A DNA stretch of 38,525 nt from an uncultured archaeon (GTDB lineage: Archaea; Asgardarchaeota; Thorarchaeia; Thorarchaeales; Thorarchaeaceae), in assembly GCA_964458565.1 (NCBI GenBank), contig CAYWJO010000034.1, forward strand, positions 1 through 38,525. Reading direction: 5' to 3'. A program made the translations under genes and the position numbers. Under the pieces are notes generated by a model. It was not told where the DNA came from and searched no databases. It was given only the letters and a program-made list of their open reading frames with translations. This document shows, piece after piece, positions 7,746 through 10,302 of this stretch; position 1 is the first letter of the stretch; every line of letters begins with the position of its first letter.

Positions 7746-8813
7746 TCAGAGTTTTCTCTTACCTAGAAGAAACTCTTCTACCCATCTCTCAGCCTTATAG
7801 TATGGTACGCTTACTGGGGCTTTCTTGAATCCATATGCGGATATCGCTTCTAATGCGCCACCAATCTCTCTTTTCAAGGCAAGTTTTGCACCACGAATAA
7901 CATCCATTAATATCGGACCTGCATTAGGGCCATCTGTGACCTCCATTCGAATATCTATGACAACTGGTGCACCACCAAATTGACGACCATGAACATAGAA
8001 ATATGACTCGCGTCCATTATCTAAAAATGGTACATAATCTGAAGAACCTGCTACTAGTGGAGCTTCATAGGGCAAATCCTGACTGATTGCGGATGTTTTG
8101 ACTCCTCTCTTTCTCATCCTTCCCCGGTAGTGAGAGTCCAGCGATTCAGCCCCTCCGCCCACATCCAATTGATAGCTCTTATCAACTCTTACGCCTCTGG
8201 CTACAAGCAGCTGTAGAATATTTCGATGCAAAATTGTTGACCCAAATTGGTCTTGTATGTCATCACCAACCAAAGGAAGTCCTTTCTCCTTGAACTTTGC
8301 ACTCCACTCAGAATCAGAGGCAATACTGACAGGTGTTCCGTTGATGAATGCACATCCAGCTTCAAGAGCCGCGTTAGCATAGAACAATGTAGCTTCTCTA
8401 GCAGATCCAGGCAATAGATTCAGCACGATTTCTGCACCCGTATCTTTCAATACCTTTGTCACATCAGAAGTACTCTTGTCCGATACTTTAACTAGCGCCT
8501 TTAACATGTCATCTACGCCATCCAGTTCTTTACCCATGTTAACAATCACATTAGTCTTCGGAACTTTAGCGAACTTCATGACATTATTAGGCTCTGCAAA
8601 GACAGCTTCAGAAAGATCGAGTCCAACCTTGCTGTCTATTACATCAAAAGCTGCTACAAAGGAAATGTCTCCTACGTGAAATCCAGCAAAATCAATATGG
8701 TTTAAACCGATAACATCCTCTGAGGCTTTTGCATTTTTATAATACTCTACACCCTGTACCAGGGCACTTGCTACATTTCCAACACCAATAAGAGCTACTT
8801 TGATTTCAGTCAT
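7746..8813 (-). CDS. ino1: myo-inositol-1-phosphate synthase family protein
   Basis: IGVGNVASALVQG, AFINGTP, VGDDIQDQFGSTILHR, DGPNAGP, SAYGFK. Confidence 0.9.
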   Translation of the reverse strand: MTEIKVALIGVGNVASALVQGVEYYKNAKASEDVIGLNHIDFAGFHVGDISFVAAFDVIDSKVGLDLSEAVFAEPNNVMKFAKVPKTNVIVNMGKELDGVDDMLKALVKVSDKSTSDVTKVLKDTGAEIVLNLLPGSAREATLFYANAALEAGCAFINGTPVSIASDSEWSAKFKEKGLPLVGDDIQDQFGSTILHRNILQLLVARGVRVDKSYQLDVGGGAESLDSHYRGRMRKRGVKTSAISQDLPYEAPLVAGSSDYVPFLDNGRESYFYVHGRQFGGAPVVIDIRMEVTDGPNAGPILMDVIRGAKLALKREIGGALEAISAYGFKKAPVSVPYYKAERWVEEFLLGKRKL

Positions 8814-8897
8814 TATTAACGCCTCTTAGATACATTTCTGACATTTCCCCAAATGATGTATTTAAAGTTTTATGAGCATATAATAGTTGGATATGTG

Positions 8898-8914
8898 GAA
8901 GAAGACTGATAAGT
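8898..8914 (+). promoter_or_regulatory. Putative BRE/TATA-like promoter of the candidate ncRNA
   Basis: Purine-rich GAAGAAGA followed by CTGATAAG; first T (8907) is 30 nt upstream of G8937, the 5' end of the terminal helix. Confidence 0.4.
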
Positions 8915-8936
8915 GTTGGTGCATACAATATTATTT

Positions 8937-9167
8937 GGACGTTGGAATACGACCGAGCTCCTTTATCTTCACTTCATAGTGAAGATATATGGTGAAGCTT
9001 CATCTATGCGAATACTAAAAAAATGGTATTCGTTTCTCACCCAAGGGTTCAGAGAAGGATGGTGCTGAGCGACAAAATCTAGGAGCGAATTAGGATTATT
9101 AGAATGAGGGTGGACCTCTGCCCAGAATTGGGCTGCTAAGTCTGCGGTTTCCAGCGTCCACTTTTTT
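8937..9167 (+). ncRNA. Putative novel structured ncRNA (~224 nt plus U-tract)
   Basis: Terminal helix 8936-8947/9149-9160, internal closing helices, seven hairpins, G-U wobbles that work only on the + strand, T6 tract 9162-9167, no long ORF. Confidence 0.7.
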
Positions 9168-9181
9168 GTATGCGAAAATTG

Positions 9182-9844
9182 TCACTCAATCTGTTTTTCT
9201 AAAATCTCTACAATATCTACGACTTCTACTTTGCTTTGCAACTGATCTGCACTTGACATTAGATTTGTTTCACAGAATGGACATGCTGATGTAATGATCT
9301 CTACTCCTATCAGTTCTCCACTCTTGATCCTGTCCATACCTATTTTCTTTGCTAGCTGGGGATCATATGACCGCAGTCCTCCACCAGCTCCACAGCACAT
9401 CGCTGCATGTTTGTTTGTGTCCATCTCTAGAAAATCAACATCTGGTAGAGCGTTGAGAATTGTCCTTGGACTATCATATACTCCGAGCGCTCTCCCCATA
9501 TGGCAAGGATCATGATAATTCACAACAATCTTTTCACCCAATGGTTTAAGTTTGAGCTCTCCCGACTTGATTAAATCTTCAGCGAGTTCGACGATATGCA
9601 CTATTTCAGGAAGTTCAGTTCCAAACATTTCTGGCAGGTCTTTCCTTAGTGTCTTCAAACAACCTGCACATGAAACCACTACACGCTTTGCACCAGATTT
9701 TTTGATTGCTTCTGCTAAATTTTCTGCATTACTCTCTGCTTCGTTTCTTCTTCCTGTTCTAAGCATTACAGAGCCGCAACAAGGTTCATTCTCGAGCACA
9801 CCAAAATCAATATTCGCAATTTTCACTACAATATCCGGATCCAA
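9182..9844 (-). CDS. CCG-domain Fe-S protein (HdrB/HdrD/GlpC-like); first CCG domain appears N-terminally shortened
   Basis: EPCCGS..SCAGC; YHDPCH..CCGAGGG..ACPFC; GGAGG RBS before TTG start. Confidence 0.85.
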   Translation of the reverse strand: MDPDIVVKIANIDFGVLENEPCCGSVMLRTGRRNEAESNAENLAEAIKKSGAKRVVVSCAGCLKTLRKDLPEMFGTELPEIVHIVELAEDLIKSGELKLKPLGEKIVVNYHDPCHMGRALGVYDSPRTILNALPDVDFLEMDTNKHAAMCCGAGGGLRSYDPQLAKKIGMDRIKSGELIGVEIITSACPFCETNLMSSADQLQSKVEVVDIVEILEKQIE

Positions 9845-9871: not shown

Positions 9872-10198
9872 TTAGAATATGTGTCGTATTTTCATTAAAT
9901 CACTCGCTGAGCCCTTGACCTTTAATTTTCTCTTGAGAAGTGCTGACGCCGCACTCATCTCCTCTAAGAAGAGTTTTCTTATTGTTTCATCATCGCTCTG
10001 TATTTTCATATCCGGATTTTCAATACCGCCTGAGTGAACTGTTATATCATTATCTTTTACAATGAAATGGTACTCTCTTCCATCTTTTAACATTAGGAGA
10101 GCAGTACGTTCCCAATCTTCAATATGTTTTCGAGTTTCTGGCTCTTGGAGACCTATGGCAATTCTCTCTTGCATTAGCTCTAATAGTTCGTCAGTCAT
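9872..10198 (-). CDS. SCP2 sterol/lipid-binding domain protein
   Basis: NPDMKIQSD..SAASALLKRKLKVKGS; probable start ATG 10198 (track start 10234). Confidence 0.88.
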   Translation of the reverse strand: MTDELLELMQERIAIGLQEPETRKHIEDWERTALLMLKDGREYHFIVKDNDITVHSGGIENPDMKIQSDDETIRKLFLEEMSAASALLKRKLKVKGSASDLMKIRHIF

Positions 10199-10302
10199 GA
10201 TTAATGCACCCCTTGTATTGAGTCGTTCAATCAATCCAAGTTATAGTTGTTTTCCTAAGGCTTAATCAATACAGATAAGTACAGACCAGCAAACTCCAAC
10301 TT

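Follow-up and report, generated by a model that had tools for sequence, protein, structure and literature searches.

Large, intricately folded, conserved RNAs are uncommon; where a function is known, most of them are ribozymes or form the core of an essential particle, as in the case of the ribosome, RNase P, SRP, and tmRNA. RNase P RNA is almost universal, in contrast to an RNA that is confined to a single family. The usual site of L7Ae in archaeal ribonucleoprotein (RNP) RNAs is a K-turn. The large conserved non-coding RNAs raiA, OLE, ROOL, and GOLLD of bacteria are known from comparative analysis alone. Among known prokaryotes, Asgard archaea are the closest relatives of eukaryotes, and to our knowledge their RNA inventory is almost unexplored. 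A literature search returned no description of a structured RNA of the kind reported here from Asgard archaea.

The window analysed here is a 38,525-nucleotide stretch of DNA from an uncultured archaeon of the family Thorarchaeaceae (contig CAYWJO010000034.1), to which all coordinates refer. It contains a 368-bp gap between the gene for myo-inositol-1-phosphate synthase (ino1, 7746–8813, minus strand) and a gene for a CCG-domain protein (9182–9844, minus strand; Pfam CCG, E 2.6e-30). The two genes are considered as context only, ino1 being divergent from the RNA and the CCG gene convergent with it. A sequence-only reading had placed a structured RNA on the plus strand of this gap, and all the complementary stretches that it quoted are present at their coordinates, including GCTCCT (8957–8962) with AGGAGC (9081–9086) and the hairpins at 8964–8987, 9008–9033, 9034–9056, 9106–9118, and 9120–9133. 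The ends pair as TGGACGTTGGAA (8936–8947) with TTCCAGCGTCCA (9149–9160), twelve base pairs with one U-G, and are followed by six thymines (9162–9167). The region 8930–9170 of the plus strand folds with an energy of −87.2 kcal/mol (z −5.81), which none of 200 dinucleotide shuffles equalled, and the reverse strand with −68.5 kcal/mol (z −4.5). The folding of the plus strand exceeds chance. The predicted transcript starts at G8937, at a pyrimidine–purine step, ends within the T6 run at 9162–9167, and would be about 225–231 nt long. Based on the covariance models described below, the z-score of the fold, and the single copy of the element in the genome, the segment from 8937 to about 9167 of the plus strand is almost certainly a genuine gene for a structured RNA, with boundaries of its own.

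The element is present in one copy in the 3.7-Mb genome of 93 contigs and is therefore not a MITE or another dispersed repeat; the dispersed copies that would mark a MITE were not found in the genome. A mobile element was also rejected because strong matches occur singly in the genomes of the family and in syntenic positions. The homologues are 223–264 nt long, and their lengths modulo three are distributed as 26/18/16, so that a three-nucleotide periodicity is absent. Together with a longest open reading frame of 29 codons inside the RNA of this copy, this indicates that the locus is not a protein gene. A small protein was rejected since the homologues have no conserved frame.

A BLAST search found one syntenic relative, G023, the copy of which also folds (z −5.0). 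The ino1 orthologues of the family were then taken and their flanks searched, and in most cases the RNA was located on the upstream side of the gene. A covariance model was calculated from an alignment of 26 copies (R1, alignment A3) and a second one from 55 copies (R2). Both models cover positions 8936–9169 end to end, with 119 bits. With R1, a single strong match over the full length was obtained in each of 71 of the 86 genomes of the family, representing 15 of its 16 genera, with E-values from 1e-13 to 1e-76. Two of the 71 genomes contain extra matches, which are partial or weak only. R2 scored the most distant members of the family higher than R1. Genus g11 (four genomes, 83–93% complete) gave zero matches with R1 or R2, even at E ≤ 0.1; the RNA is therefore either dispensable or quick to diverge.

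The searches beyond the family were negative. R2, which was applied to 41 Asgard genomes, found nothing in the sister family at E ≤ 0.1 and nothing in 36 further Asgard genomes from 15 other families. R1 was run across 151 Asgard genomes and found nothing credible in 124 genomes outside the family. The regions upstream of ino1 were also examined in genus g11, in the sister family, and in three further families, and the RNA was absent. An exact two-block pattern, which is too strict, occurred in G000 and G023 only among 400 Asgard genomes. A pattern of conserved blocks with two gaps was applied to 185,579 GTDB species, each represented by one genome, and returned 42 records, labelled Thorarchaeota, Asgard, or uncultured archaeon bar one bacterial record, which we regard as a chance match, as R2 does not confirm it. 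A scan of JGI metagenomes for transcripts matched long genomic contigs only. Judged from these sequence comparisons, the RNA is a member of a previously uncatalogued family that is limited, within the reach of the searches, to one Asgard family (Thorarchaeota). The sequence-only reading had described an independently transcribed Asgard RNA without an assigned class. The homologues, the covariation, the predicted promoter and tail, and the lack of an Rfam family agree with this description; the term Asgard is too wide for an RNA of one family.

The covariation was evaluated in alignment A5, in which 60 homologues are aligned to R2 and 49 consensus pairs were scored. In this alignment, which is fitted to the structure of the model and is hence biased in its favour, standard pairs occupy 93.6% of the cells versus 41–55% after the 3′ partners were slid by one to three columns, and both-side changes affect 38 of the 49 pairs versus a shuffled mean of 21.4, with none of 500 shuffles reaching as many. 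Alignment A4 gave a similar picture. Compensatory exchanges are also present in an unfitted MAFFT alignment, for example GGACG/CGUCC to GGGCG/CGCCC and CUCUC/GAGAG to CUUCC/GGAAG. According to these comparisons, nearly every helix of the RNA is conserved with compensatory changes. The paired columns contain 284 G-U or U-G cells versus 44 A-C or C-A cells, and the GC skew is positive over 8800–9200 only. Both properties identify the plus strand, opposite to the two neighbouring genes, as the RNA strand; the earlier argument for this strand, which relied on G-U pairs in a single copy, holds across the family.

The terminal helix P1 is formed by GGACGUUGGAA (8937–8947) and UUCCAGCGUCC (9149–9159), as indicated by complementarity, the fold, and the homologues. 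Its first five pairs are kept in 60 of 60 homologues, with exchanges of A-U for G-C, C-G for U-A, and G-C for A-U. In the minimum-energy fold, P1 is extended inwards by P1b, in which GACCG (8951–8955) pairs with a partner at about 9145–9149, in a register uncertain by one base. This helix (helix 3 of A5) has both-side changes in six of six pairs. P2 pairs GCUCC (8957–8961) with GGAGC (9082–9086) around P3–P6, based on complementarity, the R2 alignment, and the homologues; 96.6% of its cells are paired in the 60 sequences, and three of five pairs have changed on both sides. P3 is a 10-bp hairpin of the fold (8964–8987), the sequence and length of which differ among genera. Every group has a hairpin at this position, which lies outside the consensus pairs of the model.

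P4 consists of CAUC (9001–9004) and GAUG (9058–9061) and closes the three-way junction of P4, P5, and P6. It is defined by the R2 alignment and the homologues, with both-side changes in four of four pairs and 96.3% of the cells paired in the 60 homologues. Seven inner hairpins had been proposed from the sequence; two of them, GGTGA/TCATC (8991–9004) and GGAT/ATCT (9057–9080), are complementary in this copy but are replaced by P4 in the conserved fold. Both hairpins above P4 are supported by the fold and the homologues. Hairpin P5 (9008–9033) is formed by GCGAAUACUA and UGGUAUUCGU. Its family consensus is CGAAU-G-UCC ... GGA-G-AUUCG, in which a G·G or G·A mismatch is conserved, and it has both-side changes in eight of nine pairs and 95.7% pairing (helix 6). 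P6 (9034–9056) contains UUCUC/GAGAA, an inner ACC/GGU, a variable loop of four nucleotides, and the three-nucleotide bulge UCA (9049–9051). It is 100% paired, with both-side changes in four of four pairs (helix 7), and few stretches of the family are as conserved as its CUCACC...GGUUCAGAG. The apical part of P6 is absent in genus g2 only. Read from the sequence, neither the P6 bulge nor P5 allows a K-turn to be drawn; the pairs flanking the P6 bulge are Watson-Crick pairs and not G·A pairs, because the facing strand reads UC and not GA.

The pairing of the 3′ third differs between this copy and its relatives, and the consensus fold that the models give for this part is tentative. The linker at 9087–9105 has a divergent sequence here, AUUAGGAUUAUUAGAAU, whereas the alignments show a conserved CACGUUCA and an A-rich run in most relatives. 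The subsequent conserved motif GAGGGUGGACCUC (9106–9118) occurs once in the genome and is absent from genus g5. In this copy it is able to form the hairpin P7 (GAGG, GUGGA loop, CCUC), and P7 and P8 are the best fold. In relatives, the 5′ half of the motif can pair with CACGUUC, which in most of them is complementary to GAGGGUG, and the 3′ half with the AAGUC region, resulting in P9. Hairpin P8 (9120–9133; helix 12) has the sequence GCCCA GAAU UGGGC, and a C-G pair is exchanged for U-A in comparison with G023. The conserved AAGUCU (9138–9143) contains GUC (9140–9142), which can pair with GAC (9113–9115) to form P9 around P8; this helix (helix 11) has both-side changes in three of three pairs and is 83% paired.

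A helix around P8 recurs with unlike sequences in g8, g5, g2, L069, and L075. Across genera, its variants are GAC/GUC, CCUCAA/UUGAGG, ACGAGUC/GAUUCGU, CGUC/GGCG, and GGUGUG/CGCACC. The outer helix that had been proposed for this domain, GGAT..TTAG with CTAA-GTCT, is present but peculiar to this genome; in the relatives, other sequences surround the last hairpin. A pseudoknot of the 3′ tail (CACCUCU) with AGAGGGUG is not supported, since tail position 374 (in columns of A4) changes with no compensating exchange. Genus g5 keeps the tail without the motif, and the SRP RNA genes have an identical tail, which also contradicts this pairing. A mutual-information scan for additional tertiary pairs gave clade-linked noise only and no supported pseudoknot. 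Over the entire RNA, conservation sits inside helices and at the bulge, and the longest conserved unpaired stretches are 8–9 nt long. One of these, CACGUUCA, is not retained in this genome.

The predicted promoter at 8897–8926 of the plus strand, identified by homology, comprises a purine-rich stretch, the TATA-like CTGATAAGT at 8906–8914 (centre at about −27), and a proximal GCATAC at 8921–8926. The TATA-like element noticed in the sequence-only reading aligns with a CTTATGTT/CTTAATTG box at −30 to −22, which, together with the purine-rich stretch, is common to 59 homologous upstream regions. Many of these regions also have a GCATAC-like box near −15, and the predicted start in the homologues is a pyrimidine-G step. 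The position of the CTGATAAGT box leads to the prediction of the start at G8937, and we infer the promoter function from a spacing that is typical for archaeal promoters. A promoter word, ATGTTG, common to this gene and tRNA genes was looked for and not found. The 3′ tail, A-C-U6 at 9160–9167, corresponds to the family consensus of ACCU followed by a pyrimidine- or U-rich run and is a likely termination signal. An ACCU and U-rich tail likewise ends the SRP RNA genes here and in four relatives. We take it to be a putative lineage-typical 3′-end signal of stable RNAs and not a specific pairing element. A specific antisense function of the tail is disfavoured by its preservation in g5, which does not have the internal motif, and by its occurrence on SRP RNA. 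At the level of sequence, the RNA strand thus contains the promoter and terminator of its own that are generic to non-coding RNA genes.

Rfam 15 gave no match anywhere in the window at the gathering score. When the threshold was relaxed to E ≤ 10 for the region 8780–9220, three chance-level matches were obtained (E 2.8–5.5), none of a class plausible in an archaeon, and 15 homologous loci had no match at E ≤ 0.1. The RNA has no known family at gathering or permissive thresholds, and ARAGORN detected 0 tRNA or tmRNA genes in the whole window. The genome encodes RNase P RNA (C1:72105–72437, 142 bits) and a full-length SRP RNA (C47:9930–10241, 87.9 bits, E 3.7e-20) elsewhere, and the relatives also possess SRP RNAs of their own. 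In five relatives, a normal 5S rRNA of 120 nt (53–68 bits) is encoded besides this RNA. Since these genes exist separately, in the case of 5S rRNA in the relatives, the RNA is none of the three. It is excluded as RNase P RNA, SRP RNA, 5S rRNA, tRNA, or tmRNA.

Forms of 5S rRNA with expansion segments exist (Stepanov and Fox 2021, PMC7812874). An expanded 5S rRNA was considered because the only 5S-like match in this genome, located elsewhere, is weak and 83 nt short; it was rejected based on the five relatives that have both a normal 5S rRNA and this RNA. The genome, which is 93% complete, has no match to PF05731 (TROVE/Ro), and the idea of a Ro-associated Y RNA was abandoned as the TROVE gene was not found. 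C boxes (RUGAUGA), D boxes (CUGA), and ACA boxes are not conserved in alignments A3 and A5; CUGA (9065–9068) and ACA (9073–9075) are present in this copy and not conserved in the family.

The genes around the RNA are conserved to different extents. An ino1 orthologue flanks the RNA on the 5′ side and is divergent from it in 56 of the 60 loci, mostly at a distance of 110–180 nt. A CCG orthologue, usually 386 amino acids long with an extra 4Fe-4S part (Fer4+CCG), follows on the 3′ side in convergent orientation in 52 of the 60 loci and lies 1–60 nt from the RNA in many of them. A gene for an SSB-like OB-fold protein with an RGG-rich tail is located between the RNA and the CCG gene in 23 of the 60 loci, and in 22 of these 23 it is co-oriented, 150–280 nt downstream of the RNA. 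In G019, the RNA adjoins ssb and the CCG gene, and ino1 is 22 kb away. In loci without ssb, including that of this genome, the RNA is still beside ino1 and the CCG gene. Judging from the gene order, the block of RNA, ino1, CCG, and ssb looks like plain inherited synteny that was passed on whole. SSB paralogues are numerous and also occur in g11, the genus without the RNA. The SSB-like neighbour was rejected as a partner of the RNA because of these paralogues and because it is linked in 23 of the 60 loci only.

Based on the fold, its conservation, and the layout of the gene, a role of the RNA can be proposed. The RNA would be transcribed from its own TATA/BRE promoter, end at the U-rich run, and serve as the scaffold of a lineage-specific ribonucleoprotein. 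The invariant elements, which are mostly helical or bulged, may be sites of protein recognition or tertiary contacts. They include the GGACG/CGUCC end, GCUCC/GGAGC, the mismatch of P5, the UCA bulge of P6 within CUCACC...GGUUCAGAG, and GAGGGUGGACCUC. The variable arms (P3, P8, and the loops) would function as spacers. We consider the combination of own promoter, U-run end, and protein-bound scaffold the most likely mechanism, with a probability of roughly 45–50%. The scaffold is rated first because of the many covarying helices, the invariance in helices and at the bulge, the short and non-universal single strands, and the SRP-like layout of the gene. By analogy to SRP RNA genes, the layout of terminal helix, ACCU, and U-rich run would fit the biogenesis of a stable RNP RNA. 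There are also observations that speak against a scaffold: the missing K-turn, genus g11 without the RNA, and neighbours that look like inherited synteny.

The RNA might instead be a trans-acting regulator that base-pairs with mRNA or rRNA through the conserved unpaired CACGUUCA, the GUGGA loop, CCAAGUCU, and the UCA bulge, with the remaining fold providing stability. Several conserved stretches of 5–9 nt stay single-stranded in one or more of the fold models, a promoter and a terminator are predicted for the gene itself, and GAGGGUG resembles a Shine-Dalgarno sequence. The CACCUC of the tail resembles the usual 3′ end of 16S rRNA. The 16S rRNA gene of this MAG is present as a fragment only, and two 'chromosome' relatives gave no SSU match. 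We regard such a regulator as unlikely, since about 50 conserved covarying pairs in 230 nt are far beyond the needs of known base-pairing sRNAs and there is no universal seed: CACGUUCA is lost here, GGUGGACCUC is absent in g5, and the top of P6 is missing in g2. Moreover, the ACCU tail is kept in g5 without the internal motif and is also found on SRP RNA. The size, multi-junction build, single copy, and invariant nucleotides of the RNA are like those of large ribozymes and RNP enzymes, and the three nested three-way junctions with possible long-range pairings (P9, tail to motif) would permit a compact core. A role in catalysis, be it as a ribozyme of a new class or as the RNA component of an RNP enzyme resembling RNase P/MRP, is very unlikely, however: no Rfam ribozyme family is similar even at E ≤ 10, the mutual-information scan supported no pseudoknot, and the range of one family, with loss or an unrecognisable form in one genus, would be unusual for an essential enzyme.

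The tight conserved linkage to the neighbours raises the question of whether the RNA acts in cis, as a leader or attenuator of the co-oriented SSB-like gene, or by adjusting ino1 or CCG through a convergent or promoter-associated transcript. The RNA neighbours ino1 in 56 of 60 loci, is 1–60 nt from CCG in many, is co-oriented with ssb in 22 of 23, and remains by ssb and CCG in G019, where ino1 is distant. This role is highly improbable given that the RNA is encoded opposite to ino1 and CCG and overlaps with neither, and that 37 of the 60 loci, this one among them, have no downstream ssb. Where ssb is present, it is preceded by a TTTAAA-type box after the U-rich end of the RNA, and the structure is conserved irrespective of the neighbours. 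It is barely credible that the RNA belongs to a known family (SRP, RNase P/MRP, expanded 5S, Y RNA, or 6S-like) and has diverged so far that the Rfam models missed it. A terminal helix of both ends, a Y-shaped outline of three domains, and the size recall 5S, SRP, and Y RNAs, and the one 5S match of this genome is weak and truncated. Nevertheless, RNase P RNA (142 bits) and full-length SRP RNA (88 bits) are encoded elsewhere in the genome, five relatives have a normal 5S rRNA in addition to this RNA, neither a TROVE/Ro protein in the genome nor a tRNA or tmRNA in the window was found, and 16 family members have no Rfam match at permissive thresholds.

The RNA of 230 nt, with about 50 covarying pairs and a single copy throughout the diversification of the family, may point to an as yet unrecognised cell machinery. 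A more far-reaching and decidedly unlikely possibility is that it is the core of an undescribed, Thorarchaeota-specific RNP enzyme, or itself a new ribozyme class. If so, its standing would be comparable to that of RNase P or SRP RNA, with the difference that it was invented in one Asgard lineage. The significance is limited by the range of one family and by the one genus that seems to manage without the RNA. When cultures of Thorarchaeota or metatranscriptomes of good quality become available, the gene, the fold, and the invariant sites would provide a concrete handle for pull-downs and structure work.

Compared with described systems, the RNA combines features of several classes. It resembles Y RNA and YrlA in its long terminal stem of paired 5′ and 3′ ends, its U-rich 3′ tail, and an arm containing GGUUC, but it has twice their usual size, gives no match to the Rfam models Y_RNA and YrlA, and occurs in a genome without a TROVE gene. 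The path from a terminal helix to a three-way junction with two arms, and the single-stranded 3′ end after the helix, are like those of 5S rRNA (RF00001); unlike 5S rRNA, the RNA is twice as large, does not contain the loop C and loop E sequences, and does not match the model. With archaeal RNase P RNA (RF00373) it shares a housekeeping-style RNP RNA gene, a multi-junction fold, and conserved nucleotides scattered in helices, whereas the CR-I and CR-V motifs, the P4 pseudoknot, and a match to the model are missing. The intricate large fold, the strong covariation, and the lineage-restricted occurrence are common to raiA, OLE, ROOL, and GOLLD. These are Rfam families, none of which was matched; the RNA bears no similarity to them, its host is an archaeon, and it is single-copy and syntenic, in contrast to their association with mobile elements or operons. 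Archaeal SRP (7S) RNA (RF01857) differs by its rod shape, its helix 6 and helix 8 motifs, and its model, which the RNA does not match. Like SRP RNA, however, the RNA appears to be a stable RNA of the range of 230–310 nt, encoded by a single-copy stand-alone gene, with both ends in a terminal helix, and, like the SRP RNA genes of the lineage, its gene continues from this helix into ACCU and then into a U-rich run.

The CCG-domain gene on the 3′ side of the new RNA (window 9182-9844, minus strand) encodes a protein of 220 amino acids, which contains CCG domains only. Its orthologues at the equivalent place in relatives are approximately 386 residues long and include an N-terminal 4Fe-4S dicluster part. 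In G000, the genome of the window, an SCP2-domain open reading frame (window 9872-10234, minus strand) is located upstream of the CCG gene instead of the 4Fe-4S part. G000 also contains a second ino1 paralogue (C2:128429-129511, minus strand), which is approximately 43% identical to the ino1 adjoining the RNA and is present in nearly every genome of the family.

Another neighbour of the RNA in relatives is a gene for an SSB-like OB-fold protein (Pfam PF21473; L037:1925-2425, plus strand; L016:349-882, minus strand; L072:2039-2554, plus strand; L078:1923-2333, plus strand), most copies of which have a long C-terminal tail rich in glycine, arginine, and tyrosine (RGG-type). The gene was found in 23 of the 60 RNA-bearing loci, and in 22 of these 23 it is co-oriented with the RNA and positioned 150-280 nt downstream of it. 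G000 encodes three close SSB-like paralogues, together with further, more distant ones, elsewhere in the genome (contigs C21, C28, C16, and C8), and none of its paralogues is inside the window.

In some genomes of genus g3 (G002:C34, G381:C71, and G379:C1, corresponding to loci L060, L086, and L064), the RNA is separated from ino1 by 740-950 nt rather than by approximately 130-165 nt. These loci also lack the CCG neighbour. The gaps are occupied by short open reading frames without a Pfam match, which suggests insertions or local rearrangement. Genome G363 contains a full copy of the RNA and, on a very short extra contig (C292:7-159), two fragments corresponding to model positions 62-140 and 157-215, which are probably an assembly duplicate or a strain variant. 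A high-scoring copy (188 bits) was identified in a record titled Candidatus Hermodarchaeota (L122, JBHLLF010000002.1). Since the RNA copy of G384, a genome of family f1, has exactly the same score, the two are seemingly one genome, and the public label of L122 seems to be at odds with the family placement based on the genome.

The sole 5S rRNA match of G000 (C55:19270-19352, minus strand; L087:1501-1583) is 83 nt long and scores 32 bits, which is under the cut-off. It retains intact helices I-III and an intact loop C, but 7 nt take the place of the helix IV/V domain. Normal 5S genes of 120 nt are present in relatives. The match may be a pseudogene or a minimal variant, or the real 5S gene may be missing from the assembly. 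The SRP RNA gene is located at C47:9930-10241 on the minus strand. At the 3′ end of the SRP RNA genes of G000 and of four relatives (loci L112-L115), the terminal helix (..GCCGCUGC) leads into ACCU and then into a U-rich run. The new RNA shares this 3′ layout with them, and the arrangement may constitute a lineage-typical 3′-end or termination signal for stable RNAs.
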